A stretch of DNA of 64,000 bases, from contig JBLIEI010000014.1 of NCBI GenBank assembly GCA_047633055.1, positions 10,833-74,832 on the forward strand. Direction: 5' to 3'. Under the pieces are notes generated by a model. It had not been told where the DNA came from. It saw only the letters and a program-made list of their open reading frames with translations, and did no database searches. The position numbers and the translations under genes were made by a program. Source of the stretch: Halieaceae bacterium. Lineage in GTDB: Bacteria; Pseudomonadota; Gammaproteobacteria; Pseudomonadales; Halieaceae. Within the stretch, counting starts at the first letter, position 1. Each line of letters begins with the position of its first letter. Positions 12,091-63,827 of the stretch are shown piece after piece.

Positions 12091-12166
12091 TCCGCTTTAG
12101 CTCAGTTGGTAGAGCAATTGACTGTTAATCAATGGGTCGCTGGTTCGAGCCCAGCAAGCGGAGCCA
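12091..12166 (+). tRNA. tRNA-Asn (anticodon GTT)
   Basis: The acceptor stem TCCGCTT/AAGCGGA is followed by G-CCA. The D-arm is AGCTCAGTTGGTAGAGC, the anticodon loop is CTGTTAA and the T-arm is GGTTCGAGCCC. Total length is 76 nt. Confidence 0.93.
12121..12166 (+). repeat. attL: 46-bp direct repeat formed by the 3' part of tRNA-Asn
   Basis: ACTGTTAATCAATGGGTCGCTGGTTCGAGCCCAGCAAGCGGAGCCA is identical to 22988-23033. Confidence 0.9.
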
Positions 12167-12173
12167 GATACAA

Positions 12174-12206
12174 CCCCCGTAAACGTTAAGTTTCGGGGGT
12201 TTTTTT
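12174..12206 (+). terminator. rho-independent terminator supplied by the island downstream of the reconstituted tRNA-Asn
   Basis: CCCCCG (12174-12179) pairs with CGGGGG (12194-12199) and is followed by T7 (12200-12206). Confidence 0.7.
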
Positions 12207-12360
12207 ATGCCAAAAATAACGCAATAAATCCAAAAATAGTCCTATATTAGGACACTAGCAATTGTTTTTAGTTGCGGCTATACTTTGTGGATCGCGTACC
12301 GGAACGCAACAAGATGCAAACCGACGCAATGGGGTGAAAAGTCCAAGGCAGTTCGAAACT

Positions 12361-12384
12361 GCCGCAACTATTGCCGCAACTATT
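12361..12384 (+). repeat. tandem 12-mer GCCGCAACTATT x2 (candidate integrase arm-type site, left end)
   Basis: GCCGCAACTATTGCCGCAACTATT recurs at 22918-22941 as GCCGCAACTATTGCCGCACCTATT. Both copies are followed by an ACCCAATGA(T/C) motif. Confidence 0.5.
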
Positions 12385-12439
12385 TTGACCCAATGACTAA
12401 AATGTTGCGAACCAATGATCGTATTTTCAAGGGCAATGC

Positions 12440-13753: not shown

Positions 13754-13822
13754 AATCGGGGGTGAAGGTGAACCACCACCAACCCCCCCTAATCAAAGTA
13801 CGACTAAAAAGGTAATCGTAAA

Positions 13823-14077
13823 ATGACTGATAACAATTCTACTACTAACAACAGCAATACGCCCTCTGCCAGGTCTGCCGGAGAAATCTGCAACCTGGCG
13901 GCCTCACTTGGCGCCCTGTGCGACGACGCACTCGACAACCCCCAGCAGGTAACGTCCGCCCAGCTCGTCGCCATGAAAGCCCTGGCGGGCAATATTGGCG
14001 CGCTTGCCGATCATATTGGCGGGGGTGGGTATCGAACCGATGCGCTCGAATGGATGGGGGTGAACCCAAATGCCTAG
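13823..14077 (+). CDS. hypothetical protein (84 aa), island
   Basis: The ORF has a plausible RBS (AAGGT) and an 8-nt overlap with the next ORF. It has a low-complexity N-terminus and no recognisable motif. Confidence 0.45.
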   Translation: MTDNNSTTNNSNTPSARSAGEICNLAASLGALCDDALDNPQQVTSAQLVAMKALAGNIGALADHIGGGGYRTDALEWMGVNPNA

Positions 14078-15068
14078 CTTGCCTCGCCCTAATGTGGCGC
14101 AGCCAGAGTATACCCTCGACGAGTATACCCACTACTGCGGTCTTCATCGGGATACGGTTGACCGCCAAATAGACGGGGGCGAGCTTCGGCTTGCCTCTCC
14201 CTGTCCTGACAGAACACCTGGTAGACGCGGCTGTAAATCGATCGGGATATCGCTCGAAACTATGGATCGCAAAGCGCGGGCACTATTGGGAATGATACTT
14301 GAGCGCCGACTTGCCCATTCAGAGGTAACGATCAACGAGGCCAACGGACTGCTGCGCAAAGAGCTACTGCGCGAAAAGCTACTACTGCGCAAAAAGTTAC
14401 CGCCGCGCGAAAGGATACGGCGCGGAGGCCCCCCTAAATCCCCCAAGCTGTTGAGCCTACCCCGATCAGAGCCGCCCGAATACCTGTATGAAAGCGATAT
14501 AACTCGCGACTTCAATTTGTGCCGAGGAGGTTTCCAGACACCGGAAACTAAATACGAGCATGCAGCGTGGAAACGTTATTTTTATCAAGACCTGGACGGT
14601 CGCGAATATTTGCTCTGCCGTATCACTGCGGAGTTTGTCGAGGGAAAATTTTCGGGCGAAACATTGACGGTAGATGTTGTCGGCTCAGGCGACGTTATTC
14701 CATCGGAGCAATTCGAGGGTCGCCCCGCCACCCCGGCACAAGAATCCGCACCGGCAACTATAGAGCCTTTTGTTAGCCCCCAGAGAGGCAACCCGTTAAC
14801 AAATGCGATCGTTCAATTTGGTAACAATCTATTCAAGGAATCTAAAGAGGGCGAAACTCCAGGGTGGGGGGCTGTTCTACGCGCAATGCTCGACGAAGAA
14901 GGCAGAGAAGCTATGACGGAACTCGAATGCAAATACGACAAAGATACTAACGAGTTTTTCTATACGGACAGCAACGGCAAGAAAGAACGGGTAAGCAAAA
15001 GTACGGCGAGAGGGCGATACAACAGGAGGCGAAGAAAAGCCAATAAGGATGCAATAACGACCGATTAA
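14070..15068 (+). CDS. hypothetical protein with an excisionase-like HTH N-terminus (332 aa), island
   Basis: YTLDEYTHYCGLHRDTVDRQIDGGELRLA resembles excisionase/MerR-type HTHs. A basic repeat region (LLRKELLREKLLLRKKLPPRERIRR) follows. The remainder is unrecognised. Confidence 0.5.
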   Translation: MPSLPRPNVAQPEYTLDEYTHYCGLHRDTVDRQIDGGELRLASPCPDRTPGRRGCKSIGISLETMDRKARALLGMILERRLAHSEVTINEANGLLRKELLREKLLLRKKLPPRERIRRGGPPKSPKLLSLPRSEPPEYLYESDITRDFNLCRGGFQTPETKYEHAAWKRYFYQDLDGREYLLCRITAEFVEGKFSGETLTVDVVGSGDVIPSEQFEGRPATPAQESAPATIEPFVSPQRGNPLTNAIVQFGNNLFKESKEGETPGWGAVLRAMLDEEGREAMTELECKYDKDTNEFFYTDSNGKKERVSKSTARGRYNRRRRKANKDAITTD

Positions 15069-15129
15069 CAGAAAGATAGCCATTAGCGCGCAGTAGCCCG
15101 TTTTTTGCGCGCGGGTTCGCCCTGCGCCT

Positions 15130-15166
15130 TATACCTTGCAAACATTCCAATCAAAAGCAAGGTATA
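15130..15166 (+). promoter_or_regulatory. perfect 10-bp inverted repeat TATACCTTGC-N17-GCAAGGTATA covering the RBS of the HTH gene (operator or RBS-sequestering hairpin)
   Basis: The arms at 15130-15139 and 15157-15166 are exact reverse complements. AAGG at 15159-15162 lies 8 nt upstream of the ATG at 15171. Confidence 0.45.
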
Positions 15167-15170
15167 CAAA

Positions 15171-15416
15171 ATGGGCGCCACCACCCAAACAACGCTCCAG
15201 CAACTCGCCACGGAGTGCCACGTTTCGCTCCGAAAACTCCAGCTTGATGTAAAAAGTGGGATCCTAGAGATAACCCGCGTCGGGCGGACGCCGTTCGTTA
15301 CAGAAGAGCAAAAAGAAATCTACTTTTTACGCAACCGCGTTGCGAATAGCCCACGAACGTATGCCGAGGAACGAGAGCTCGAGCGCCTAGGTTTCCGAGC
15401 TAAACCGAATGAATAA
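15171..15416 (+). CDS. excisionase-family HTH DNA-binding protein (81 aa), island
   Basis: TLQQLATECHVSLRKLQLDVKSGILEITRVGRTPFV fits the excisionase-type HTH pattern. The start was trimmed to the ATG at 15171. The gene overlaps the next gene by 8 nt. Confidence 0.55.
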   Translation: MGATTQTTLQQLATECHVSLRKLQLDVKSGILEITRVGRTPFVTEEQKEIYFLRNRVANSPRTYAEERELERLGFRAKPNE

Positions 15417-16578
15417 GTGCGCAAGCGCGTCGCCAAAGTTCCGGCGCCGACTCGAGCTACTGTTACCGAAAAGCGACTTGCTGACTAGCCTCGACTGGCC
15501 AGACGAACAGGCCTATCAATTTCTTGTCGATCTCGACCAGGATATTGATCTGGGCGATGGCGGCCAATACTCCGTAGTTGCAAAAAAGAATGCTGCCATG
15601 CGAATGCTGAATGTCGGCGTCGACCATTCAGCCGTTGCCGTCTGGTATGTGTTAGCCGACTACGCATACAAAGGCAGCAAAGGCATTTGTTTCCCAAGCC
15701 TAACAACTATAGCCGGTCGTGTGAGCCTCTCCAGGCGCGCTGTTATCCGATGGATCAATTACCTAGTCGAGCTAGGGGCCGTTGAGAGACTGACCCGAGG
15801 CAACGGCAGAAACGAAGCTACCCGATATTTCATCATTACGACCTGGAACCCGTCGTTCGGCTTACACACTAGCGGCGCAAAGGGTGACGGCAACGGCACT
15901 ATTCCTACGAAATCTAATAGTGACAGTAGCGACACCGTTCCGGCCGAAATAGTGACACCTGTGACATTAAATAGTGACACCTATGACACGCAAATAGTGA
16001 CGCAGGTGTCACACGAATCTATCTATGAAACCGGCATTAAGCCGGTTGAAATAGATAGACAGGCTAACGCGCAAAAATCTTCGGGCGCTGAGGCGCCCTG
16101 CGATTTGGTCGCTCCGCCTGGAGAGCTGCGATTGTCTGAGGTATTTCGCAGGGGGTGGGGCGGGCTTAAACCTCGCGAGGCAAAACACACACAGCGGCAA
16201 CTAGCAAAATCCATGGCTGAGGGCGACACCCCCGACGAAATAGCCGACGGCCTGTTACGACACCTGGCGTGGGCTATGGCGTGGGAAAAGCCCCCCTGGC
16301 AACTCGCAGCGCTTTTACGCACATCGAAGTATCACGACGACTGGGACACTCGGCCTCCGGCAAAAAAGGATAAACCCAAAGCAAAGGCCGCCACCAGGTC
16401 AACGCCAGCACAACTCGCCCGGAGCATCTCAGACGATGATGCGGCATCGCTCGGCCCCACCCAGGCTCGAAAAATCTTTGACGAGCACCTCAAAGGCGAT
16501 TGCAAACTTTGCTCCAGCGGGGGTGCGACTCCGCCATGCGATAGCGGGGCGCGGCTAATACGGAAAATAACAGGCTAA
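15409..16578 (+). CDS. replication-initiator-like HTH protein (389 aa), island
   Basis: FPSLTTIAGRVSLSRRAVIRWINYLVELGAVERL is typical of HTH_36/Rep-O-like winged-helix initiators. The gene contains an iteron array (15916-16012). Confidence 0.55.
   Translation: MNKCASASPKFRRRLELLLPKSDLLTSLDWPDEQAYQFLVDLDQDIDLGDGGQYSVVAKKNAAMRMLNVGVDHSAVAVWYVLADYAYKGSKGICFPSLTTIAGRVSLSRRAVIRWINYLVELGAVERLTRGNGRNEATRYFIITTWNPSFGLHTSGAKGDGNGTIPTKSNSDSSDTVPAEIVTPVTLNSDTYDTQIVTQVSHESIYETGIKPVEIDRQANAQKSSGAEAPCDLVAPPGELRLSEVFRRGWGGLKPREAKHTQRQLAKSMAEGDTPDEIADGLLRHLAWAMAWEKPPWQLAALLRTSKYHDDWDTRPPAKKDKPKAKAATRSTPAQLARSISDDDAASLGPTQARKIFDEHLKGDCKLCSSGGATPPCDSGARLIRKITG
15916..16012 (+). repeat. iteron array (candidate island origin of replication) inside the Rep-like gene
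   Basis: Four copies of (A)AATAGTGAC start at about 15916, 15948, 15970 and 15993. The last three are spaced 22-23 bp apart. The last copy is part of the inverted repeat GTGAC-N6-GTCAC. Confidence 0.6.
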
Positions 16579-16607
16579 CAAAAGTACCAATAATAATAGA
16601 GGCAAAA

Positions 16608-16928
16608 ATGAAACAAAAACACAAAATCGAAAATCAAAACGCGCTCGACGACCTGGCAAAGACAATCGGAAAGGTGGCCACAGAAAGTCGACGCCGGAAA
16701 CTGTGGCGACTGCATTCTGAGTTGAGCCGAACGTCTCCAGGTATACAGTCTGCACGCGCGAAAAACGTGGTGGGGTTTGTTGGCGTAAAACAGACCAAGA
16801 ACGGCAGGTATAGCGCAATGGCAGCCATTCGAGGGAAGCGAATTCACATAGGCACATTCAACAGACCGTATGAGGCCTACGCAGCGCGAGCGATTTTTCT
16901 CGCAAAGCATCGTGACGACGAAAAGTGA
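16608..16928 (+). CDS. AP2-like DNA-binding domain protein (106 aa), island
   Basis: VGFVGVKQTKNGRYSAMAAIRGKRIHIGTFNRPYEAYAARAIF matches the AP2/ERF-type fold pattern seen in phage and HNH-associated proteins. No HNH motif is present. Confidence 0.5.
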   Translation: MKQKHKIENQNALDDLAKTIGKVATESRRRKLWRLHSELSRTSPGIQSARAKNVVGFVGVKQTKNGRYSAMAAIRGKRIHIGTFNRPYEAYAARAIFLAKHRDDEK

Positions 16929-17043
16929 AATTCGCCTGAGTTCGCGCGAGTTCGTTTTGATAGTAAAAAGACAGAGCATTTCGTCGGGTTACATAGAGGA
17001 CTTACACCAATGCAAACTAAACTAATTTTTACAACATAAAGAG

Positions 17044-17331
17044 GTGTTTATGACTGACCCAGAAAACAAAGATCAAGTCGTGAGAATTGACGGCAGCGGC
17101 ACAACCTCCGCTAAAGTTCGTGAAGCGGCAAGCCTTTATCTACAGCGTGCCGGAGGCGGCCCAGAGGTGAGCTTCGCCAAGTCCCTAAGGTTCTATGCCG
17201 AGATTGGGGCTGAATTCGAAAGGCTTCGCATCCTTGGCGGAAACTTCCCGTTCTCGACCGAGCAGGCATTGAAGCTTCACGCGCAAAAAATGGCAGGGGG
17301 TCGTGAGTCGACCCACCTGGAGATCAAATAA
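17044..17331 (+). CDS. hypothetical protein (95 aa) translationally coupled to the capsid gene, island
   Basis: A good RBS (AAAGAGG) precedes it and its stop overlaps the next start (TAATG at 17329-17333). The function is unrecognised. Confidence 0.55.
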   Translation: MFMTDPENKDQVVRIDGSGTTSAKVREAASLYLQRAGGGPEVSFAKSLRFYAEIGAEFERLRILGGNFPFSTEQALKLHAQKMAGGRESTHLEIK

Positions 17332-19280
17332 TGGGGGTGAAATCCCCCACCACGCCCGACTGGCTCGAACTGTCGAACTTGTGTCGATCTGATCGAGTCG
17401 AGGGTAAAACCTGGTTCGATATGAAAGCGCAAGGGGAAACCCTCGAACTTTCGATATACGACGAAATCGGAATGTGGGGCGTTAATGGCTCCGACTTTAA
17501 ACGCGCCCTCGACGGGTTCGATAATGTTTCCGAGATTGTTTTAAATATGCACTCGCCAGGCGGATCGGTTTTCGACGGCCTGGCAATTTACAATCAACTG
17601 AAAAACCATAAAGCGAAAGTTACCGTCAAAATCGACGGCCTCGCGGCCTCAATCGCGAGCGTTATCGCTATGGCGGGGGATACGATAATTATTCCCGAGA
17701 ACGCTTTTATTATGATTCATAAACCGCGAATGCCCGCAAATGGTATCGCGGACGAATTGCGCGAAAGCGCCGATCTTTTAGATAAGGTCGAAACGACGTT
17801 GATTGCGGCCTACCGCGTCAAAACGGGTTTAACCGATTCCGATATTTCTGAAATGCTCGAGGCCGAAACATGGCTAACTGGCATCGAAGCAGTCGAGATG
17901 GGATTTGCCGACGAAATAGCCGAGCCAATCCAGGCAGCGGCTACTTTAAACAATGGCTTAATCGAGGAGTACTCTCAAATGCCAAGCAAAGCTAAAACAC
18001 TAATCAGCGCCACCCCCGCCGATAAATTCAAGGCTGCCGAACTGGCTCGCCGTACTGAGGTAAAAGCGGTATTCGCAGATTTCCCCCAGCACGACGACGT
18101 TCGCAATGGTTGCCTCGACGATATGGAGTGCTCCGCCGAGACTGCCCGCGCTAAACTGCTGGCAACTATGGGCGCCGCTGCTACTCCGAGCGCGGCAGCC
18201 ATCCACGTCGGCAACGGCTCCATAGTTCGCGACGTGCTCCAGGATGCGCTACAGGCGCGCACTGGAGCCGCCACGCTGCAAGATAAAGGCAACCCCTACC
18301 AGGCATCGAGTTTGCTTGATCTGGCGCGCGCATCGCTGATACAGAACGGTACGGGCGTTGCAACACTTGCGCCTATGCAGGTCGTAGCGGCCGCCTTTAC
18401 ACACAGCTCCGGCGACTTTGGCTCGGTTCTTTCCAATGTGGCCGAGAAATCGCTACTGAATGGCTGGAACTCCGCGCCAGAAACATATCCCCTGTGGACG
18501 CGTAAAGGCACGTTGTCATCGTTTCGGCCCGCATTGCGCGCCGGTATTGGTGGCTACCCAGTGTTGCCGTCTGTTGCAGAGGGCGCCGAGTATACACACG
18601 CCACCATGAACGACACTGGGGAAGTAATCGCCCTGGCGAAACACGGTTCCATGTTCTCAATCACCCGCGAGGCGATCATTAACGACGACCTGGACGCGTT
18701 CTACCGCATACCGGCCGGACAGGGTCGAGCGGCCATGCGGACGATCGGAAGCCTGGTGTATGCATGCCTAACTGGCAATACGGTGATGAGCGACGGCAAG
18801 GGTATATTCCATGCCGATCACGGCGGCAACACAATCGTAGACGCCCTCGACATAGGCGGCATCGCAAACATGCGTAGAATTATGCGTATGCAGACTGATA
18901 ACGCCGGACAATCTCTGAACATTGCCCCTGGTTATTTGCTCGTTCCGGCGGCGCTGGAATCGCAAGCGCAACAGGTTATCGCCTCGACGGCCGTACCTGG
19001 CGCCGACAGTAATTCCGGCATTAAGAATCCGGTCAACTCCGCAGCCGAGATCGTTGTCGAGAGTCGCCTCGATGCGGCCTCTGCTGACAGTTTTTACATG
19101 GTTGCGGGCGCTGGCGACACGATCGAGGTTGCATTCCTCGACGGCATGGACACTCCCTACCTGGAACAGCAGGCCGGTTGGAGCGTTGACGGCGTTAGCT
19201 TCAAGGTACGGATCGAAGCTGGCGTTGCGCCGATAGACTACCGTGGATTTGTTCGCGGAACTGGCGGTTTGCCCGTATAG
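17331..19280 (+). CDS. prohead protease / major capsid protein fusion (ClpP-type S14/S49 protease N-terminus, HK97-fold capsid C-terminus)
   Basis: The N-terminus reads MHSPGGSVFDGLAIYNQL..IDGLAASIASVIAMAGD..FIMIHKP, with ClpP-like Ser and His contexts. The C-terminal ~320 aa (..YPLWTRKG..GAEYTHATMND..FSITREAIINDD..) resemble phage major capsid proteins. Confidence 0.75.
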   Translation: MGVKSPTTPDWLELSNLCRSDRVEGKTWFDMKAQGETLELSIYDEIGMWGVNGSDFKRALDGFDNVSEIVLNMHSPGGSVFDGLAIYNQLKNHKAKVTVKIDGLAASIASVIAMAGDTIIIPENAFIMIHKPRMPANGIADELRESADLLDKVETTLIAAYRVKTGLTDSDISEMLEAETWLTGIEAVEMGFADEIAEPIQAAATLNNGLIEEYSQMPSKAKTLISATPADKFKAAELARRTEVKAVFADFPQHDDVRNGCLDDMECSAETARAKLLATMGAAATPSAAAIHVGNGSIVRDVLQDALQARTGAATLQDKGNPYQASSLLDLARASLIQNGTGVATLAPMQVVAAAFTHSSGDFGSVLSNVAEKSLLNGWNSAPETYPLWTRKGTLSSFRPALRAGIGGYPVLPSVAEGAEYTHATMNDTGEVIALAKHGSMFSITREAIINDDLDAFYRIPAGQGRAAMRTIGSLVYACLTGNTVMSDGKGIFHADHGGNTIVDALDIGGIANMRRIMRMQTDNAGQSLNIAPGYLLVPAALESQAQQVIASTAVPGADSNSGIKNPVNSAAEIVVESRLDAASADSFYMVAGAGDTIEVAFLDGMDTPYLEQQAGWSVDGVSFKVRIEAGVAPIDYRGFVRGTGGLPV

Positions 19281-19386
19281 GTTTACCCGCTATTGGCATG
19301 GCGGGAACCCCTAAGGGGTGAAAGTCCGGAACTTGAAGAACTCCGGCAAAAGTCCTGGCGGTTTAGTTGGCCGTTAGGCGCCTCGA

Positions 19387-19428
19387 GGGGGCGCATTTGG
19401 CTGGAAGCCTCATGCGTCCCCTTTTTTT
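19387..19428 (+). terminator. rho-independent terminator after the capsid gene
   Basis: GGGG(G)CGCAT (19387-19396) pairs with ATGCGTCCCC (19412-19421) and is followed by T7 (19422-19428). Confidence 0.65.
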
Positions 19429-19451
19429 GAAAAGGTACTCCCGCCGATCTG

Positions 19452-19502
19452 AGGTATACGGGGGCGCGGAGTCGCAGTCGCTCACTATTTACGAATTTTT
19501 TT
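19452..19502 (+). promoter_or_regulatory. lambda cosN-like sequence (candidate cohesive-end packaging site of the island)
   Basis: The island sequence is AGGTATACGGGGGCGCGGAGTCGCAGTCGCTCACTATTTACGAATTTTTTT. As I recall it, lambda reads AGGTTACG|GGGCGGCGACCT|CGCGGGTTTTCGCTATTTATGAAAATTTT. The site lies directly upstream of a Nu1 homologue. Confidence 0.5.
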
Positions 19503-19503
19503 A

Positions 19504-20055
19504 ATGGAGGTTGTTGTTTTGTCGAGCACAGATATAGACCCGCTCTGGTTAAACAAACGTGACGCCGCAGCGTCGGTGGGGATTTCAACACAAGCCTTTA
19601 GTAAATGGGGTGTAAAGCCCGTTCAGCGTTCAGGCCGCGAGGTGTTTTTCACTGTTCGCGATATCGTCGACAATCGGGTTGAGAGAGCACTTAAAGGAGC
19701 AAACGGCGAAACTCCCGGGGAACTCGAGAATTTGGGGCGCAAGAAGTATCTCGAGGACTACCGTCTCGCGAAAGCCCGTCGAATAGCTCAAGAGCAAAAA
19801 AATGATCTCGCTGCCGGAACAATGATTCCGACTGATTTCGCAACGTTTGCACTCTCGAAGATTGCCGCTCGAATCGCCTCGATCCTGGACACGCTCCCGC
19901 TAACTATGCGGCGGGCTCACCCGGACCTCGAGTCTCGACACATTGATTCCTTTACTCGCGAAGTTGCGAAGGCGCGAAACGTGGCGGCGGAGGTCGACGA
20001 AATCCTACCTGAGTTGGTCGAGGAATATGCCGCCCTTACAAACGAGTCAAGTTAA
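19504..20055 (+). CDS. terminase small subunit, lambda Nu1-like
   Basis: TFALSKIAARIASILDTLPLTMRRAHPDLESRHIDSFTREVAKARNVAAEVDEILPELVEEYA aligns closely with lambda Nu1 (TFVLSRIAGEIASILDGLPLSVQRRFPELENRHVDFLKRDIIKAMNKAAALDELIPGLLSEYI). An N-terminal HTH (AASVGISTQAFSKWG) is present. Confidence 0.85.
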   Translation: MEVVVLSSTDIDPLWLNKRDAAASVGISTQAFSKWGVKPVQRSGREVFFTVRDIVDNRVERALKGANGETPGELENLGRKKYLEDYRLAKARRIAQEQKNDLAAGTMIPTDFATFALSKIAARIASILDTLPLTMRRAHPDLESRHIDSFTREVAKARNVAAEVDEILPELVEEYAALTNESS

Positions 20056-20320
20056 GAATTTAATAAAAGCAGTTTGCCTCGGCCTGTCTTCACTATTCCG
20101 GCCGGAGCCATTGAGAGCTGCTAAGCGCGCCGCTTTTGACTTCACCGCCGCGTCAATCGCGCTGGGAGATGCTCCCCGACTGTTGGGCGTATTTGTACGG
20201 TCGATTTGCCCCCCCCCCCAGCCCTTGGCCCAGCAAGCGGTTCACTGGGGCGCACGAGACCGTCGGAACGGGCTCAGCCTTCCGTGCCCCCGTTTCCGAC
20301 CTGCGCCTCAGCTAGAGAAA

Positions 20321-22339
20321 TCACCTCAGCAATTTATTAACTCGATCGATTAGGCCCGACCACTGGGCAGCTTCATTTTCTTGAAGGTCGGCGGCAGTGT
20401 GGTCTCTAGTCCATCGGACATATGCTTTCGCCAATTTATACTTCGAAAACCCCTCAACGTCAGAGGTAAAAATATCTACTATCGGTCTTCCCGGTTGACT
20501 TAGAGCCGCGCTAGAAGTATCGACGCCAAACTCACTTGCAACAATGCTGATCAGCGTTCCCCTAAGCAGGTCTTCGATTTCGGCTTTTTCCACTCCCGAG
20601 CAATAGTCTTTAGTTCTAAGAATATTTTTGTTACCTAGAGTGTGGACCAGATTTTCTTGTTGTGCTGCTTGATCGCCAGCGGCGTCAGAGTCTAATAGGG
20701 CAGCGACCTTTAATCTGTGTGCGTGCAATATAGTTGCGTAGTAAACAAGCTTTCCTGCGGAGTTTGCAAAAACCAGAGAAATTTTATTGTTTAAATCAAT
20801 AATCTCACTCTCCCGAAGCATTGCGGACGTAGATTCCAGGTACCAATAGTCGGTGATGCCCTCCATGACTAGATTTCTACTCTGCGAAAAAAGGCTGCTA
20901 GCAAGGTCGTAGCCAAGGGCTTCTTGCAGGGGCAGCAATCCAGCGGGATCACCAGACGAAATGGCTAGGTGAACTTTCGTGCCTTCGGCTCTCGTCTTCA
21001 TTTCAACCACTCTGACGATATCTAATTCGTCGGGCCCCACTAGAAACGGAGAATGTGTTGAAAAAAGAGTTTGGTTCGCTGCCGCAAGCCGCGATAGGGT
21101 GTTTCTAAATTCACATTGCTTGAGCCCATGTAGGCTCATTCCGGGCTCGTCCAACAATAGAATTGCGTTCTCGTGTTTGTCTATCGCCTCCGCGAAAAAA
21201 ACAACGAAGAATGAAACAAGCCATTGAAAGCCCTCGGATCGTTGATCCAATTCGATATCCACTCCAAGATCATCTTCCACCACAACCTTCAAGTATTGCC
21301 CATCGACCAAAACTTTCAGTTTGTCCGCCTCAGGCCGATTGGAATCAGGCAGCCAAACAGATAGTATTTCCCTTGTTAGCCGGACGCTCGCAGCGTTGAG
21401 TTGGTAACTTCTTATATCGAGATTGTCTCTATAGGTTTTAAGGGCCTCAGCGTCATTTATGCCCGGTTCGGGGGTTTTTCCTAGAGCGGAAAGCTCTCTC
21501 GGCGTAAACCCAAGTAGCTTCAAGAGGCAGATGTTTCCGTAATCAAAGAACTCATCGTCAAGTATCTGATCTTCGGTTCTTCTCGCAAGATGCTCCAAAT
21601 GAATTAAAGGTTTTACGCGAAAGTAATTATTGAAAAGAATAAAGACTGGGACCCGTTCACCGAGCGTTTTCAGCGCGGATTCCCACAAGCCGTTGAACGC
21701 AATAGCTTCAATCAATGCGTCGTATCTGGCCTCTTCTTTATCATTATCCTCATCGACAAACTCGTAGCTTTCCTCCAGCCATTTATTAAGATTTTTTGAC
21801 GTATCCCCCGAAACCCATGTGTAGTCGGCCCAATCGCTCGTTAAAGCCTTGAGCGAATCGCTAGGTTTTATTGGATCAGTATCCGATTCCTCGGGTGAAT
21901 ACTGTTTGTCCATGTGAGCGGCAATCCTGACTAAGTCCTTTTTCAAGTCTTTAAACCAAATTTTTTCCTGGCCACCCACCAGCGTATGCGTCCCTCGATT
22001 TGAATAATACCGACTAAGCTTGTATTCACTATCATGAAAAGCTTCCGGTATGAGGGCCTTGTCGGTATCTTCCAGTCTAAAGGTCCCCTCAACGACAACA
22101 GTTTCGTTCGGCTCCACTGCACCGGTCGTAACGTCATTATATTTCGACCGCGGGTAGTCTCTAAGGATGTCAAACCCCGGCGTATCCTCTGGCCGATTTA
22201 GCTGTTGCAAGGCCCTAAATAAAACTGTTTTTCCAGCTTCATTGGGGCCGACTAAAATTGTTTTTAAGTCTTCAATTTCGAATTCCGTAGAATCTACAAT
22301 GCTTCGATAGCTCTGAACTCTTGCTTTTACTAATTTCAT
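20321..22339 (-). CDS. OLD-family nuclease-like protein: ABC/AAA_15-type ATPase fused to a C-terminal TOPRIM domain (672 aa)
   Basis: Walker A is GPNEAGKT (aa 31-38), the signature-like motif is SEGFQWLV, Walker B is ILLLDEPGMSLH and the H-loop is FSTHSPF. The TOPRIM Glu (NLVMEGITDYWYL) and DxD (LLDSDAAGD) are present. Sampled 60-nt lines are ~35-47% GC against ~57-60% in neighbouring genes. Confidence 0.75.
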   Translation of the reverse strand: MKLVKARVQSYRSIVDSTEFEIEDLKTILVGPNEAGKTVLFRALQQLNRPEDTPGFDILRDYPRSKYNDVTTGAVEPNETVVVEGTFRLEDTDKALIPEAFHDSEYKLSRYYSNRGTHTLVGGQEKIWFKDLKKDLVRIAAHMDKQYSPEESDTDPIKPSDSLKALTSDWADYTWVSGDTSKNLNKWLEESYEFVDEDNDKEEARYDALIEAIAFNGLWESALKTLGERVPVFILFNNYFRVKPLIHLEHLARRTEDQILDDEFFDYGNICLLKLLGFTPRELSALGKTPEPGINDAEALKTYRDNLDIRSYQLNAASVRLTREILSVWLPDSNRPEADKLKVLVDGQYLKVVVEDDLGVDIELDQRSEGFQWLVSFFVVFFAEAIDKHENAILLLDEPGMSLHGLKQCEFRNTLSRLAAANQTLFSTHSPFLVGPDELDIVRVVEMKTRAEGTKVHLAISSGDPAGLLPLQEALGYDLASSLFSQSRNLVMEGITDYWYLESTSAMLRESEIIDLNNKISLVFANSAGKLVYYATILHAHRLKVAALLDSDAAGDQAAQQENLVHTLGNKNILRTKDYCSGVEKAEIEDLLRGTLISIVASEFGVDTSSAALSQPGRPIVDIFTSDVEGFSKYKLAKAYVRWTRDHTAADLQENEAAQWSGLIDRVNKLLR

Positions 22340-22513
22340 TAGTTGATAGATCCCTTTTTACTGTTGATACGTTTCCGTATCCATTTACTTAAGGGGCTGC
22401 GAGCCCAGCTTGACTGTCTAGATGCTTAGTTGCAAAGCTAACCTTGGACCCCGCCCCGTTCAGATGTCCCTGTGTACTTCTCGGCCGCTGGCCGTTAATC
22501 AAAACTCGAACGC

Positions 22514-22855
22514 CTACTTAACGCTATCGACCAGCGCCACGGCAAGCGCCCCAACTCCAACAACGAATCCCAAGAGTACAAGGGCTGAAGCGACCCGAAG
22601 CACCGTGTTAGTGGTAGTACCGATCTTTTCACCGTAGCGTTCAAGATTCGCCAACAGTATGGTAATTGCAACAATCGAAGCCAGAATGCACACACCAAGC
22701 CCAGCGGCTACGAACGGAATTAACTGGGTGCCTAACTGCCCGGCGCTGAGGTCACTGAGAAGGGCTGCACAAACAGCAAGCCCCGCAGTAGAGACCGTGG
22801 CAAGGTGCTTGTAGAGGTCGATTGCTATCTTGCGCTTTTCAACACCGATGTTCAT
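22514..22855 (-). CDS. small integral membrane protein (about 113 aa, 3 predicted TM helices)
   Basis: Three hydrophobic stretches are present: LATVSTAGLAVCAALL, LIPFVAAGLGVCILASIVAITILL and VLRVASALVLLGFVVGVGALAVALV. The ORF-track start at 22873 is a TTG, so the first ATG at 22855 is used here. The start is uncertain. Confidence 0.5.
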   Translation of the reverse strand: MNIGVEKRKIAIDLYKHLATVSTAGLAVCAALLSDLSAGQLGTQLIPFVAAGLGVCILASIVAITILLANLERYGEKIGTTTNTVLRVASALVLLGFVVGVGALAVALVDSVK

Positions 22856-22917
22856 GCTGGAAGGATAACCCAACTAGCCAATACACTGAAACGTTGCGGT
22901 AAACCTACAGAAAGAAT

Positions 22918-24104: not shown

Positions 24105-24989
24105 CTAACGCTGGTTGCTGTTAATCGGGTTGCGGACTGGCAACACCCAGCGGCGCCACATCAACGGCAGCAGCAAGAGGCGATCCGGGCGCGAATCGCG
24201 GCTCTTGCGGAGATACTCAAGGCCCACGGGCATGATCCCCGCATCCTCGAACGGCACGCTGCGTGCCGTGCCGAACAAATAATCAAACCAGGGAACAACC
24301 GTGCCGTAGTTGCTGTTGGTGAACTGTAGGTCGAGGCTGTGGTGCAGGCGGTGAAAGTCTGGCGTGACAATGACTTTGCGCAGTACACGATCGACTGCGG
24401 CTGGCACATAGATATTACTGTGATTGAACAGTACCAGCAGCACTCGAAGCAGTTGATAAAGAACCAGCATCAGCGTGGGCGCACCAAATAACAGAAAGAC
24501 CGGCAGCAGAACGAGTGTGCCTATCACCACCTCTGCGATGTGGTGCCTGTGGGAGGTGGTCACATCAAAGGTGGTATCTGTGTGGTGTACAGCATGCATG
24601 CGCCACAGGCCGCTGACACGATGAAAAACCCGGTGAATCCAGTACTGAGCGAACTCGACCAGGACCACTATTATTACGACGGCTACCGCCGGCTGCAGGC
24701 GCTCATAAAGGCCGGGGTCAGGGAAATATGAACGCAGTAGCGCCCAGCTTCCTAATTGCAGAGTGAGCCAAAACATAACGAAGAAATTGAGGCTGGCGAG
24801 AAACCAGTTCGTGAGCCAATGCGCTACCGGGACATCCGCACTGTGGCGCCTGGGCCACAGTTGCTCCAGCACCATAAGAAGCAGCATACCGCCAAAAGTA
24901 AAGACCAGCAGCGTGAGACTTCGCTGGTCAATAAGAAAGGCCAGTAAGAAGTCGTCGTGTGACGGTGCGAGTGTTATCCGATTCGACAA
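24105..24989 (-). CDS. fatty acid hydroxylase / sterol desaturase family membrane protein (copy 1)
   Basis: Histidine boxes HRVFH, HAVHH, HRHH and HRLHH lie in a multi-TM protein. It is a paralogue of 63015-63827 (shared WR.H.VHH.D, TS.RHH, TP.FHR.HH and PWFDYLF). Confidence 0.8.
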   Translation of the reverse strand: MSNRITLAPSHDDFLLAFLIDQRSLTLLVFTFGGMLLLMVLEQLWPRRHSADVPVAHWLTNWFLASLNFFVMFWLTLQLGSWALLRSYFPDPGLYERLQPAVAVVIIVVLVEFAQYWIHRVFHRVSGLWRMHAVHHTDTTFDVTTSHRHHIAEVVIGTLVLLPVFLLFGAPTLMLVLYQLLRVLLVLFNHSNIYVPAAVDRVLRKVIVTPDFHRLHHSLDLQFTNSNYGTVVPWFDYLFGTARSVPFEDAGIMPVGLEYLRKSRDSRPDRLLLLPLMWRRWVLPVRNPINSNQR

Positions 24990-24997
24990 AGCCTGAC

Positions 24998-25777
24998 TCA
25001 GTTCAAGGCCCGCATCGAAAGACCCAGCATGGCATAGTCTACAGCCATGTAACCGTTGGTCATGGTGCGCACGGCGGCCGGGGTGTGTTTGAGCACGTCT
25101 TGGGCCATTACGCCGTTGTAAACAGTTTCACCATTAATGTACCGGAACCGGTACCAGGGCAGGCCGGATTGCGTTATCCCGATTTGGGCGATGTCTGCTT
25201 TGAGTCTGACATCACTTGATTCGAAGAGACGACAGTCTACGTTACACTCCGCACCGTCCGCCAGCTGGGAACCGTCGACACAGGCATCGAGCAACTCCAG
25301 TGCGTTGGGTGGGCATGAGCCAAGGGGGGGCAGCGTCACAGGCCCTATACTCAAGGGGACTCCAGATTCATTCATATAAATATTAAGATCGTTGCCATTG
25401 ATAACCTGTGTCTCACCTGCAGGATCGGAGATTTCTATACCCACAAAAGCTCCTGCATGGGCATTGTGCATCAGGCTGACGCCACCACCGGCACTGGCCA
25501 GCGAAGCCAGCGCCAGCGCGCCTGCAATAACGGGTATAACGCCATTTTGCCTCTTTCTGAATGATATAAACGCAGTGAATGCCAGCAGTAGCGCTAGCAG
25601 TATCAACATGGTGCTGCCCAGTATCGGCACGGCCACAGCCGCCGTCGGCAGGGGCCCAAAGGTAATGCTGCCGCTGCCAAGTACCCCCGCCTGGGCTATC
25701 GCGGCGCCAAGCAATAGAACACTGCCCGTTAAAATAGATTGGATAAGGATGAGTAATCGCTGCTGAATTTTTCTCAC
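24998..25777 (-). CDS. secreted/membrane protein with an internal IPTL-CTERM-like sorting signal and a C-terminal peptidase S74 intramolecular chaperone domain
   Basis: The likely GTG start at 25777 follows AAGGAA. The ORF-track ATG at 25861 adds 28 non-signal residues. The domain order is signal peptide (RKIQQRLLILIQSILTGSVLLLGAAIAQA), then VPILGSTMLILLALLLAFTAFISFRKRQ, then a second hydrophobic segment, then a Cys-containing domain, then SDVRLKADI..VMAQDV..VDY (S74-like). Confidence 0.6.
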   Translation of the reverse strand: MRKIQQRLLILIQSILTGSVLLLGAAIAQAGVLGSGSITFGPLPTAAVAVPILGSTMLILLALLLAFTAFISFRKRQNGVIPVIAGALALASLASAGGGVSLMHNAHAGAFVGIEISDPAGETQVINGNDLNIYMNESGVPLSIGPVTLPPLGSCPPNALELLDACVDGSQLADGAECNVDCRLFESSDVRLKADIAQIGITQSGLPWYRFRYINGETVYNGVMAQDVLKHTPAAVRTMTNGYMAVDYAMLGLSMRALN

Positions 25778-26059
25778 GTTAAATTCCTTGCCTACTTTAA
25801 TTAATTTTTTTAGACTCTCGATTGTCCCATTAAGCCCCAAGGAGGCAAGCCCGTCTAGCATTCTTTCACGCTTGCAGACCTACCCCCCCCTTCGCAACCC
25901 CGCCCAAGGCCCTGCGTTACCCCTGTTTGCGAGGTTGCGTAGGTGTATAAGCCATCTCTCAAACCCTGTATCAATTTTGCTGAAAGGGTTACTGCAGTCA
26001 CGTAAACTGTCCTAATATTTTTAAACACAAATGATACTCGCGACAATAGGACTCCCGCT

Positions 26060-26452
26060 ATGCTTGGAAAGATACTTCTGTGGATCTCAGCAGTGACATT
26101 TATCTCATACGGTCTGGTGTGCTTTTTCGCGCCGGGTGTACCCGCAGGTTATGCCGGGCTAACGATGACCAATGGAGACGCGTTCGCTGAAATAGTTGCT
26201 ATGTATGGCGGGCTGCAAACCGGGTTCGGAATATTCTGCCTGCTGGCCGCACTGCGCAGCGAGTACTTTCGGGCGGGCCTGATGCTTTTAGCGCTGTGTA
26301 TTGGGATGCTGGCGCTGGGCCGACTTTACTCTTTCGCGACTGGCGGGAATCCTGTGGGTGCTTATACCTACGGCGCATTCGCCTATGAAATGACCACTGC
26401 AATACTGGCGATTGTTGCTATAAAACTCTCTGCCAGAGTGCAACCAGAGTGA
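26060..26452 (+). CDS. DUF4345-like small membrane protein
   Basis: A 130-aa, 4-TM protein. The YGGLQTGFG pattern is recalled from DUF4345 family members. Confidence 0.55.
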   Translation: MLGKILLWISAVTFISYGLVCFFAPGVPAGYAGLTMTNGDAFAEIVAMYGGLQTGFGIFCLLAALRSEYFRAGLMLLALCIGMLALGRLYSFATGGNPVGAYTYGAFAYEMTTAILAIVAIKLSARVQPE

Positions 26453-26472: not shown

Positions 26473-27843
26473 CTAGGGCAACCGTCCCTCAATGTAGTCA
26501 TCAATCATTTCATGATAGCGGCGTACCCGGATCTCCTGATTCGAGAGGTAAACTCCCTTGAATCCTCGCGAGCGAAAGCCACGTTGCTGCGACACGAATA
26601 TCGCCACGTCGTCTTCAATCGCAGGGCCGATGTAATCTTCACCATAAGTCAGCATTGACACCGCCGTTTCACTTCCGTCAAGCGAGGTAGCAAGGGTCGC
26701 GCTGTTACCCGGGTCCAGCCCGGCATCGATAGAGGCTGGACTACCGTACCACCAGTTATCAAACAGACATTGCTCCGGATCATCACGGTGAGGGCGCGCT
26801 CGCAAAAAGTGAAAACCGTCGGCCCAAACCGTTACCGCAAAATTCGGGAAAAGTGTGTAATGAAAGGCGTCTGTCAATTGCTCGTCTGGCACATTGCCGT
26901 AGTGTGCATAGCCAAGAGCTCGCCCATGCTGACGCTTGGCATTCTGGAGTGCTTCGCGCGTTGCCTCGGGGCGACCATTAAATTCGTTCGGATCCAAGGA
27001 CCAATAACGTAACAAACTGGCCAAAGGTTCCAAAATGTTGCCGTCGCTGTCTGTATAAGACGAGCCATACCCCCCCTTCATGATCATCCGGTTGTGGCCC
27101 TCGTCGGCAAGATCAAACCGGGTTTCTTTGAAATAGGTATTGATATCACTGCGAATCGCAGCGCGGTCGTCACCGGGCTTGGCACCCTGGTGAACCGTAG
27201 GCACGTGGTAGGACTCATTAAAATTATCCAGAACAACTTTCCAATTGCACGGTAGCCACATGGTATTGGCCATGGTGCGTTTCCAAGTGTGTATTTCTCG
27301 CGCCTCCCAGTCATCCCAGATCGGGCCGAGAAATTCCCGCAGCGGTTTACAGTCCGTGTCCATGTTGACCCAGACAAAACCAGCGAACGTTTCACAGGCC
27401 AGTTCCTGTAATTTAATTTTTCCACAAGGGTTCCCTTCGGGAAAATCCTCTTTGTCTGGCGCGAAACTTAAACTGCCATCCGGAAGAAAAGCCCAGCTGT
27501 GGTACTTGCAAACAAAGCGCCGCGGTGAGGATCCCTTGCTTTCGCAGACCAGCGGATTACCCCTGTGCTGGCAGACGTTGTAGAACGCCTTCACTGAGTC
27601 ATTCTGTTGACGCACCATCAAGATTTCCTCGGGCCCCAATTCTTCCATCTGCCAATCACCGGGATTGGGCAACTCAGCTTCACGCCCTAATAACAACCAC
27701 GATTTGGTCCACATACCCTCCCACTCCTCGCGCATAAAATCGCGCGAGGTATAGCGGCTGCCCGGAATGGTGTGTCCCCGGGTCTGTTGCTCCGGCCAAC
27801 GCTCTATAGTGCTTGTTGTTGATACCACTGCAGACTTCCTCAA
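26473..27843 (-). CDS. Rieske [2Fe-2S] aromatic-ring-hydroxylating oxygenase alpha subunit
   Basis: The Rieske motif is CQHRGNPL..CKYHSWAF and the mononuclear iron motif is DNFNESYHVPTVH. Confidence 0.85.
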   Translation of the reverse strand: MRKSAVVSTTSTIERWPEQQTRGHTIPGSRYTSRDFMREEWEGMWTKSWLLLGREAELPNPGDWQMEELGPEEILMVRQQNDSVKAFYNVCQHRGNPLVCESKGSSPRRFVCKYHSWAFLPDGSLSFAPDKEDFPEGNPCGKIKLQELACETFAGFVWVNMDTDCKPLREFLGPIWDDWEAREIHTWKRTMANTMWLPCNWKVVLDNFNESYHVPTVHQGAKPGDDRAAIRSDINTYFKETRFDLADEGHNRMIMKGGYGSSYTDSDGNILEPLASLLRYWSLDPNEFNGRPEATREALQNAKRQHGRALGYAHYGNVPDEQLTDAFHYTLFPNFAVTVWADGFHFLRARPHRDDPEQCLFDNWWYGSPASIDAGLDPGNSATLATSLDGSETAVSMLTYGEDYIGPAIEDDVAIFVSQQRGFRSRGFKGVYLSNQEIRVRRYHEMIDDYIEGRLP

Positions 27844-27985: not shown

Positions 27986-28402
27986 ATGGCACAAGAATTT
28001 AACGCAGGTAGTTTTTTCGCAAGATGGCTTTTTGCTGCACTGTTGGTATTTGGCACCTACAACCCTACGGCTTACTCGTTTTTTAGCTGGGTCCTGGCGG
28101 AGGGTACGGAGTTCGGTCCTATTGTCGCTATCATCGGGCTGGCGTTGTTGATCTGCTGGATTATTTTTCTGCGGGCGACCTTTCTGTCCATGGGCTGGCT
28201 GGGCATCTGCCTGGGCGGCGCTCTGTTTGCCTGCGTGCTGTGGCTATTTGTAGACCTCGGCTGGATCACCCTCGACTCCACCGGAGCCATTACGTGGCTG
28301 GTGCTGCTCGTTATGTCGCTAATTCTGGCCACGGGTATATCCTGGTCACATATCAGGCGGAGGCTTACCGGCCAGCTTGACGTAGACGATATTGAAGATT
28401 GA
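27986..28402 (+). CDS. hypothetical integral membrane protein
   Basis: A 138-aa ORF with about four hydrophobic helices and an acidic C-terminus. Confidence 0.55.
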   Translation: MAQEFNAGSFFARWLFAALLVFGTYNPTAYSFFSWVLAEGTEFGPIVAIIGLALLICWIIFLRATFLSMGWLGICLGGALFACVLWLFVDLGWITLDSTGAITWLVLLVMSLILATGISWSHIRRRLTGQLDVDDIED

Positions 28403-62281: not shown

Positions 62282-62905
62282 ATGGAATGGTGCAGCGCTT
62301 TGAAAAACTTAATAACGGGTTTATTGTTGGGGATAGGATCCGCGTCGGGCGCATTAGCGCGATCTGCCGGATTTTCTACGTTCCAGATAAGTTGGTCTGG
62401 CACAGCGGCGCCCCCTGTAACTACCATGAGTACCTATGCGCTGATTTGCTTAGCGGTTCTAGTCGCTATTGCTGCTTACCGACTTTTACGCGACAGGAGT
62501 TTCATTGTCCGAGCCCTGGCACCGCTTGTAACCTTCGGTGTCGCCGGTTTCTTTTTGGTATCCGCCGAGCAGCCTATAGCTGGTGTAGACAATATCCTGA
62601 CGCCGCCTATTGACGTAGCCAGTTGCAGCGGTTCCGCAACTTACACGGCCGATCGCCTCACCCCCCCACCTTGCTTTGTGAACACTTGCGGCTCACCCGT
62701 CACCGTATCTTACACATTTATTGATGGACAGGACTCTCAAGGAACGCCAATTACAGACGGCACCTGCACGCGAGATGTCTATTGTGCCACTGAACCGCCA
62801 TTTGCAGCTGGTGGCGCGCAAATCCCCAGCGATGGTATATCCTACGCGACGGCTTATTGCGAAGAGCTGTTTAATGAGGGGGGGGGAAACTACGGAAGAG
62901 ACTAG
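62282..62905 (+). CDS. secreted/membrane protein with an internal IPTL-CTERM-like sorting signal (copy 2 of the architecture at 24998-25777)
   Basis: The order is signal peptide (LITGLLLGIGSASGALA), ~20 aa, VTTMSTYALICLAVLVAIAAYRLLRDR (62417-62497), a second hydrophobic segment and a Cys-rich C-terminal domain. Confidence 0.6.
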   Translation: MEWCSALKNLITGLLLGIGSASGALARSAGFSTFQISWSGTAAPPVTTMSTYALICLAVLVAIAAYRLLRDRSFIVRALAPLVTFGVAGFFLVSAEQPIAGVDNILTPPIDVASCSGSATYTADRLTPPPCFVNTCGSPVTVSYTFIDGQDSQGTPITDGTCTRDVYCATEPPFAAGGAQIPSDGISYATAYCEELFNEGGGNYGRD

Positions 62906-63014: not shown

Positions 63015-63827
63015 ATGATTGAAGCCGCGCCAAATTTTCATTTAGACCTGATAGCAATAACACTGCTCGCACTCGTTGTCGGCATGCTGTTAGAAATGGT
63101 GAGGCCTGCGCGTGACATACCGATGTCTCTTACTCGCTGGCTCAATAACGGCAGTTTGGCCTTAATCGCCTACGCGATTAATTATGTATTCGCGACATTG
63201 ATCGGACTTTACATCCTCTACAGATTTGAGTCGCCTGACCTACTGGGTCTGAGTAGCGCGCCGTTATGGCTGAATCTATTGGTCACCTTTTTAGTCCTGG
63301 AGGGGGCCCGATACTCGATTCATGTGGCCGCGCACAAGGTCGACTGGCTGTGGCGATTTCACTCAGTACATCACTCGGACGCCGAAGTGGATCTATCAAC
63401 GTCCTTCAGGCATCACCCCGTTGAAGGGATGCTCAATGCCATTCCTATGACTGCACTGATCTGGTTAATTGCCAGTGGGCCCCAGGCCCTGATTCTCTGT
63501 CGTGCATGGGATTTAGTATCGACTGTGTTAACTCATACCAACGTAGATATTCCGCATAAGATTGAGCGATGGCTGCGCTTTGCAATGGTGACACCTGCTT
63601 TTCACCGAACACATCACTTCGCCGAAAAGCGCTTTACAGACTCGAATTACAGCGCTACGCTCCCCTGGTTCGATTATCTTTTTTCTACTTACCAACCAAC
63701 CACCGTGGAACAACAAACGTCTGCAAAAATTGGCCTGGACACACATACCGTCAATGAGCTGCGCTTGGACGGTATGATTTTAGCGCCCTTCCTGGATAAT
63801 ATAAAAAAACCCGATCTGAAAAAATGA
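63015..63827 (+). CDS. fatty acid hydroxylase / sterol desaturase family membrane protein (copy 2)
   Basis: It has histidine boxes HVAAH, HSVHH, FRHH and HRTHH, and is a paralogue of 24105-24989. Confidence 0.8.
   Translation: MIEAAPNFHLDLIAITLLALVVGMLLEMVRPARDIPMSLTRWLNNGSLALIAYAINYVFATLIGLYILYRFESPDLLGLSSAPLWLNLLVTFLVLEGARYSIHVAAHKVDWLWRFHSVHHSDAEVDLSTSFRHHPVEGMLNAIPMTALIWLIASGPQALILCRAWDLVSTVLTHTNVDIPHKIERWLRFAMVTPAFHRTHHFAEKRFTDSNYSATLPWFDYLFSTYQPTTVEQQTSAKIGLDTHTVNELRLDGMILAPFLDNIKKPDLKK

Follow-up and report, generated by a model that had tools for sequence, protein, structure and literature searches.

A conserved pairing of midcut-by-XrtH-type proteins with fatty acid hydroxylase-superfamily enzymes, present twice in a Halieaceae genome segment

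Analysis of a 64,000-nucleotide stretch of a Halieaceae bacterium genome (contig JBLIEI010000014.1, positions 10,833 to 74,832; hereafter the window) identified two places at which a gene for a small exported protein, with an exosortase-type signal in its middle, is followed by a gene for a membrane di-iron enzyme of the fatty acid hydroxylase superfamily. Sequence comparison indicates that these are two paralogous, co-diverged copies of one conserved two-gene cassette, termed here locus A (midcutA and hydA) and locus B (midcutB and hydB), with A-type and B-type relatives in other genomes. The upstream proteins resemble the NCBI family midcut-by-XrtH (NF033207). We lean, if only slightly, towards the view that the cassette operates within the exosortase H (XrtH)/IPTL-CTERM system, and that cutting by XrtH is coupled to a lipid made or tailored by the hydroxylase.

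Open reading frame (ORF) calls bore out the coordinates and spacing of the two-gene module reported in an initial annotation of the window. On the minus strand, midcutA (24998..25777, 259 amino acids (aa)) is followed after 8 nt by hydA (24105..24989, 294 aa). On the plus strand, midcutB (62282..62905) is followed after 109 nt by hydB (63015..63827, 270 aa). The longest ORF for midcutA spans 24998..25861 on the minus strand. Its homologues (253-257 aa) begin about 30 codons later, and this supports the GTG start at 25777 that had been proposed. For hydA, by contrast, the long ORF is supported by an N-terminal extension conserved at three related loci (L004, L014 and L037). Among all ORFs of the window only two matched the midcut profile and only two the hydroxylase profile, and each hydroxylase gene directly follows a midcut gene in the same orientation. 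By our own arithmetic, assuming about 55 genes, the chance of this double adjacency is about 2e-4, making a chance origin very unlikely. The two enzymes are paralogues, as the initial annotation had it, with 31% identity (E 2e-41), and the two midcut proteins show weak pairwise similarity (E 0.014). No terminator-like site was found between the cassette genes by a terminator scan of the window. Scans of the window for sigma-70 promoters and terminators gave background levels, the sigma-54 promoter pattern was no commoner than chance, with no site upstream of either midcut gene, and an Rfam scan returned tRNA only.

When the adjacency was sought beyond this genome, it was found to be conserved across unrelated neighbourhoods. 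Manual grouping gave at least 10 distinct lineages with the midcut-hydroxylase pair and two without it. A-type pairs occur at L004, where the midcut protein is 68-69% identical and the local synteny is that of locus A; at L014, where two tandem midcut genes precede a hydroxylase gene at the contig end; at L037, which was reached through its hydroxylase gene and lies in a nifH/DRAT neighbourhood; and at L039, in a Congregibacter metagenome-assembled genome (MAG). The genome and metagenome censuses by midcut alignment covered the B type only. B-type pairs are present at L005-L010, at L011-13 and L015 (Haliea MAG), at L016 (Halioglobus), at L017 (Mangrovimicrobium sediminis, with two tandem midcut genes) and in 11 of 13 informative JGI metagenome contigs, which are mostly close relatives of one another. 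Everywhere the paired genes share a strand, with gaps of 8-141 nt, and the tandem midcut duplicates at L014 and L017 precede one single hydroxylase gene. A-type midcut genes adjoin A-type hydroxylase genes only, and B-type adjoin B-type only; pairwise identities of the midcut proteins and of the hydroxylases are correlated (r = 0.94). The cassettes have diverged to 31-37% hydroxylase identity with their arrangement kept in at least six different neighbourhoods, which is hard to reconcile with plain inherited synteny. In Halieaceae MAGs (one labelled Alcanivorax sp.), hydA (MFT6956176.1) and a hydB-like gene (MFT6956218.1) share a 75-kb contig and are 42 genes apart as judged by accession numbers.

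It is the Haliea locus (L011-13 and L015) that ties the pair most strongly to the XrtH system, the gene order there being midcutB, hydroxylase, xrtH, XrtH-associated membrane protein, small ORF. The exosortase (168 aa) is XrtH by TIGR04177 (210 bits, cutoff 86), and its neighbour is the XrtH-associated membrane protein by NF041730 (155 bits, cutoff 35). The midcutB protein of this locus scores 39.8 bits on NF033207, under the cutoff, and the position of its pair beside xrtH shows that the XrtH system includes the B-type subfamily too. The small ORF (called at 87 aa; L011 8204-8467 / L015 12766-13056) has no family match. It follows the XrtH-associated gene, overlaps its end, and could be an additional part of the system.

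The midcutA protein passes NF033207 with 83.6 bits (cutoff 45). A profile search of the whole library, combined with earlier searches, gave a set of 135 proteins with a midcut region. In 122 of these 135 a P-x-[LMI]-[GSN] motif followed by a transmembrane (TM) helix occurs in mid-protein, in most cases with a basic residue next. The commonest form of the motif is [IV]-P-[TAS]-[LM]-[GS], and, by eye, a G[ST][IL][TV][FY]xP peptide recurs in family members about 10-14 residues upstream. The signal is not at the extreme C-terminus in either window protein, as 182 residues follow the basic cluster in midcutA and 135 in midcutB. Some relatives pass the IPTL-CTERM models themselves (L017, PF18203 25.0 bits, cutoff 20.8; L014, TIGR04174 23.6 bits, cutoff 20.5). 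The B-type proteins, of about 200 aa and with six Cys, score 40-42 bits on NF033207 and, on the basis of these scores, are treated here as a sub-threshold sister subfamily. Being under the cutoff, they are left as hypothetical proteins by NCBI annotation. midcutB is 52-63% identical to members of this conserved subfamily and scores 311.7 bits with a B-type profile. The only named NF033207-type match found was WP_164084862.1 of Pseudazoarcus pumilus; a comparison of the Pseudazoarcus protein P0017 with plasmids gave matches to S74 domains of tail-fibre proteins of Rhizobium and to nothing else, and a tblastn search of XrtH against plasmids gave no match. The midcut region also occurs within longer proteins, being N-terminal in P0247 (1424 aa) and P0242 (424 aa) and starting from residue 169 in P0149 (404 aa), so that the internal signal is not restricted to small proteins.

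Read from the sequence, both upstream proteins follow the plan given in the initial annotation: signal peptide, about 20 residues, IPTL-like block, second helix and Cys-containing domain. In midcutA (all coordinates on the minus strand) the predicted Sec signal peptide comprises residues 1-30 (25688..25777), ending ...AIAQA|G, and is modelled as a helix at 2-20. Next comes a conserved pre-signal peptide, residues 31-49 (25631..25687), which contains GSITFGP and is presumed to be the cargo freed by the mid-protein cut. The IPTL-CTERM-like block, residues 50-77 (25547..25630), consists of V50-P-I-L-G, a TM helix and R74-K-R-Q. A second TM helix, residues 80-99 (25481..25540) by hydropathy and 81-98 in the model, is predicted to bring the chain back to the periplasm. 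It is followed by a periplasmic beta domain, residues 112-186 (25220..25444), with four Cys (155, 166, 178 and 182), and by a C-terminal Peptidase_S74 domain, residues 188-259 (25001..25216). This last domain passes PF13884 (23.5 bits, cutoff 22) and has the Ser-x4-Lys site SDVRLK at 188. In a Foldseek search of BFVD it resembled the intramolecular chaperone autoprocessing domains of phages (E 1.2e-6, root-mean-square deviation 1.9 Å, 72 columns). Sequence and model alike identify the C-terminus of midcutA as an S74 intramolecular chaperone domain, predicted to be self-cleaving. The S74 site is present in 44 of the 122 motif-bearing family members, and the domain is absent from about two thirds of those sampled.

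The short B-type protein midcutB (all coordinates on the plus strand) has no S74 domain. Its N-terminal order is a signal peptide ending ...ALA|RS, then GFSTFQISWSG, VTTMSTY, a TM helix, RLLRDR, a second helix and the six-Cys domain. The IPTL-like block (62417..62497, residues 46-72, from VTTMSTY to RLLRDR) is degenerate, with Thr47 in place of Pro. The second TM helix spans residues 78-96 (62513..62569) by hydropathy and 73-94 in the model. The predicted periplasmic six-Cys beta domain (62609..62881) contains the highly conserved PPCFVNTCGSPVTVSYTFIDG and is modelled with strands. All six Cys (C115, C131, C136, C162, C168 and C193) are invariant in the alignment of the B-type subfamily, as are R67, R70, V76, R77, A80, P81, G86 and A88 in the loop and second helix.

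The AlphaFold models gave a mean predicted local distance difference test score (pLDDT) of 76 for midcutA, with values mostly of 86-93 in the C-terminal domain (one block 77), and 62 for midcutB. In both models the pre-signal peptide is a beta strand, at residues 36-42 in midcutA and 31-40 in midcutB, with disordered flanks; the 10-residue blocks covering it have a mean pLDDT of 74 and 83, respectively. A DSSP strand call requires hydrogen bonding to another strand. Since the only other predicted strands are in the C-terminal domain, the exported N-terminal peptide apparently docks on the C-terminal periplasmic domain, its partner strand being deduced in this way. We infer from the models a split-domain layout, in which a hairpin of the two TM helices interrupts an otherwise single beta domain. 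Foldseek comparison of both midcut models with the PDB gave no meaningful match, and a PDB sequence search with the midcut profile gave none.

Both hydroxylases match PF04116 (cutoff 31) over the full length of the domain, with 100.3 bits for hydA and 89.2 bits for hydB. The three His boxes that define this family (HX3-4H, HX2-3HH and HX2-3HH) are present as HRVFH, HAVHH and HRLHH in hydA and as HVAAH, HSVHH and HRTHH in hydB, and from their sequences both active sites are apparently intact. The cassette hydroxylases group in a clade of their own and reach profile scores of about 240 bits or higher; outgroup enzymes (191 and 151 bits) come from unrelated operons and have no midcut neighbour. 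hydB is 54-59% identical to hydroxylases adjoining B-type midcut genes elsewhere. The sole NCBIfam match of the window enzymes is OlsE (NF052566), an assignment ruled out by scores of 74.3 and 69.5 bits against a cutoff of 475, and NCBIfam has no XrtH-associated model for them. A PDB sequence search with the hydroxylase profile returned no relative. Members of the PF04116 superfamily act on lipids, with the di-iron site on the cytoplasmic face of the membrane. This placement suits a lipid substrate and argues against direct action on an exported peptide.

Taken together, the conserved adjacency, the co-variation of subtypes and the xrtH-adjacent locus support, at the genomic level, the earlier suggestion of a coupled processing, anchoring or lipid-modification system. 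The favoured mechanism would run as follows. Sec export and signal-peptidase cleavage would leave both ends of the midcut protein in the periplasm, with the helices as a membrane hairpin and the N-terminal peptide docked, in the form of a beta strand, against the C-terminal domain. XrtH would cut the protein at the (I/V)-P-T-(L/M)-(S/G) motif and, as the analogy of archaeosortase A and rhombosortase suggests, would transfer the peptide of about 20 residues by its newly formed C-terminus to a membrane lipid. A single midcut chain would in this way become a two-chain, membrane-held periplasmic protein. The adjoining hydroxylase would most likely make or tailor the acceptor lipid, for example by adding its hydroxyl group; alternatively, it might work in a complex with the midcut hairpin. 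In phage tailspikes S74 domains bring about trimerisation and then cleave themselves off. In the A type, the S74 domain would similarly trimerise the periplasmic domain and then remove itself.

A bolder form of this proposal is that XrtH acts as a transpeptidase or transesterase joining the conserved, exported 20-residue peptide to a special lipid whose acceptor group comes from the hydroxylase, the product being a ribosomally made lipopeptide strand, either docked on its carrier domain or released from it. We consider this improbable. If true, it would be the first time that the product and acceptor of an exosortase had been defined, and would reveal a new Gram-negative route to lipid-linked peptides.

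Several observations weigh against the coupling of an XrtH cut to a hydroxylase lipid. No xrtH or XrtH-associated homologue was found in the 64-kb window, where a search of the ORFs agreed with the initial annotation on the absence of an exosortase gene. The idea of an xrtH gene just past the end of the window was rejected, since the final 60 nt belong to the 3′ end of a gene running convergently on the minus strand; the end of this gene takes up the 173 nt that follow hydB, so that xrtH does not lie directly downstream. The family named in the initial annotation does exist and has midcutA as a member, but midcutB, with 42.3 bits, misses its cutoff. Likewise, the mid-protein motif, TM helix and basic cluster of the reported IPTL-CTERM-like block are present, but the IPTL-CTERM models stay below threshold on the window proteins, with 12.4 bits for midcutA on TIGR04174 (cutoff 20.5; residues 81-104 of the long ORF) and no match for midcutB on TIGR04174 or PF18203. 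Where midcutB has Thr47, Pro is found in each of the other nine rows of the B-type alignment ([IV]P[TS][ML][SG]). A near-identical metagenome protein, P0032, has the same Thr, which shows that it is no sequencing error. With the proline gone, midcutB may, to judge from its sequence, no longer be cut. P0032 is frameshifted after a PPPP run, and one MAG calls the B copy as an 85-aa fragment; midcutB may be decaying in this lineage.

To these points can be added that both AlphaFold models are only of moderate confidence, that a di-iron site facing the cytoplasm does not suit direct action on a periplasmic peptide, and that no experimental paper on an XrtH substrate, cleavage or lipid product was found. 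Every named carrier of the pair belongs to the Halieaceae, and this shared ancestry inflates the counts. Pairing is also frequent rather than obligatory. P0014 has no hydroxylase within 10 kb in any of its three contexts (L001-3), and the L018/L019 lineage (two Haliea MAGs) has none within reach of the midcut gene, which is directly followed by an integrase or HipA island. L026 and L034 are population variants with the hydroxylase deleted. In L034 (1022-1838) the first 18 or so hydroxylase codons (MIEAGPSFFIDLTLVTL) remain and are followed by the gene for an IPTL-CTERM protein of 210 aa, with a true C-terminal IPTL-CTERM signal (PF18203, 21.4 bits). Conversely, at L038 a B-type hydroxylase gene is preceded by one for a DUF1330 protein and has no midcut gene.

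These exceptions count in favour of the alternative that the adjacency is inherited synteny within one family, with no functional coupling and with an incidental resemblance to IPTL signals. Such an explanation would be in keeping with the restriction of named carriers to Halieaceae and with the sub-cutoff IPTL-CTERM scores of the window proteins. It is nevertheless very unlikely, given that two cassettes so diverged in hydroxylase identity have kept their arrangement in at least six neighbourhoods and that the motif is near-invariant in the 122 sequences. Moreover, the IPTL-CTERM models accept some of the family members, xrtH and its associated gene adjoin the pair at one locus, and NCBI curators independently tied the family to XrtH in naming NF033207.

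The remaining alternatives accept a functional coupling and differ in what is acted upon. The midcut protein could be a partner or regulatory subunit whose hairpin binds the hydroxylase, with the XrtH cut acting as a switch and the lipid being a general, unattached one. In the B type the loop and second helix are strongly conserved, as would not usually be expected of a simple membrane anchor; proteins that interact physically typically co-diversify, as the subtypes do here; and the intergenic gaps are short. Against this, a subunit role leaves unexplained both the conserved exported N-terminal peptide with the periplasmic Cys domain and the tandem midcut copies with one hydroxylase gene, and each gene also exists without the other adjoining it. 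We regard a subunit role as fairly unlikely. It is also conceivable that the hydroxylase modifies the midcut protein itself, for example at a residue in or near the membrane segment. The pair would then be a precursor and its tailoring enzyme, in the manner of ribosomally synthesised and post-translationally modified peptides, with XrtH as the maturation protease. The short conserved peptide before the cut site, the two tandem precursor-like genes followed by one enzyme gene (L014, L017) and the adjacent protease gene in one genome would all fit. To our knowledge, however, the characterised PF04116 enzymes have lipids, sterols and carotenoids as substrates and not proteins; their active site is at the cytoplasmic face and the peptide is exported, and the large folded C-terminal domain is unlike typical precursor peptides. 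The probability of such self-modification is accordingly low, no higher than that of mere synteny. The coupling of an XrtH cut to a lipid of the hydroxylase thus remains the reading to which we give slight preference.

The cassette shares features with several known systems. NF033207, curated in silico, has the same plan of signal peptide, mid-protein IPTL-CTERM region and further sequence, although copy B and the six-Cys subfamily of about 200 aa fall below its cutoff. The IPTL-CTERM/XrtH system (TIGR04174/PF18203, TIGR04177, NF041730) has the same motif, TM helix and basic cluster. There the signal is C-terminal, whereas in midcut proteins it is internal, with about 20 residues upstream and a folded domain, not a discarded tail, downstream. 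The cassette enzymes share their domain and three His boxes with PF04116 members such as OlsE, sterol desaturases and sphingolipid hydroxylases. Copy A shares with phage tailspikes and endosialidases the S74 domain, its Ser-x4-Lys site and a close fold; in phages S74 is carried on a long fibre, whereas in copy A it is on a small, membrane-anchored bacterial periplasmic domain. We know of no lipid attachment for any exosortase. The function of archaeosortase A (ArtA) is dependent on the lipid-synthesis enzymes PssA and PssD. The accessory genes of ArtA encode a phospholipid synthase and decarboxylase, while that of the cassette encodes a di-iron hydroxylase, so that the likeness is one of analogy and the accessory genes are not homologous. 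According to a preprint, in the archaeosortase A/PGF-CTERM system of Haloferax volcanii a polytopic peptidase removes a C-terminal TM signal and lipid is attached, and in the rhombosortase/GlyGly-CTERM system of Vibrio the substrate may be linked to a glycerophosphoethanolamine-containing lipid (bioRxiv 10.1101/2023.06.07.544157).

The families midcut-by-XrtH, XrtH, XrtH-associated protein and IPTL-CTERM are already defined in silico by NCBI. The initial annotation knew of no described link to a lipid-modifying enzyme, and a search of the searchable literature library was in accord: no paper was found there linking exosortases with fatty acid hydroxylases or sterol desaturases, none mentioning midcut-by-XrtH or XrtH, and only one mentioning IPTL-CTERM. 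Four features appear to be undescribed: the hydroxylase as a dedicated partner, the B-type subfamily, the S74 domain with which the A type ends, and the split-domain layout.

Locus A adjoins a gene for a Rieske oxygenase (26473-27843), itself flanked by genes for small multi-pass membrane proteins of the DUF4345 (26060-26452) and DUF6524 (27986-28402) families. On the other side, a mobile element (12091-22900) beside tRNA-Asn (12091-12166) ends about 1-2 kb before the locus. It encodes a tyrosine integrase (12440-13753), a helix-turn-helix (HTH) protein, a ClpP-protease/major-capsid fusion (17331-19280), a Nu1-like small terminase (19504-20055) and an OLD-family AAA/TOPRIM nuclease (20321-22339), and looks like a phage satellite or prophage remnant. 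Locus A is unlikely to be part of this element, as the Rieske-midcut-hydroxylase order is common to L004, which lacks it. Integrase genes or islands also lie beside midcut genes at three unrelated loci (L018 10872-12191, L019 10884-13912 and L003 9101-9727). The L019 island has in addition a HipA-like toxin and an HTH protein, and no tRNA gene was found there. Sulfatase genes or fragments occur within a few kb of three A-type cassettes (L004 209-2461, L014 375-2267 and L039 7558-8001), which could be coincidence, Halieaceae being rich in sulfatases.

Exosortases are widespread, and we found no study on the fate of the cut protein end; in the sources consulted, attachment to a lipid is described for the archaeal and rhombosortase analogues only. 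The cassette ties a minimal and odd substrate, with a cargo of about 20 residues and a signal in mid-protein, to one dedicated lipid-type enzyme, and its conserved B-type subfamily of about 200 aa escapes the current NCBIfam model. With only two to four genes, it lends itself to experiments in cultured Halieaceae carriers such as Mangrovimicrobium sediminis, in which the cut site, any attached group and the role of the hydroxylase could each be read by mass spectrometry. For specialists, the value of a conserved enzyme partner is useful more than astonishing, in that it makes the question of exosortase attachment tractable.

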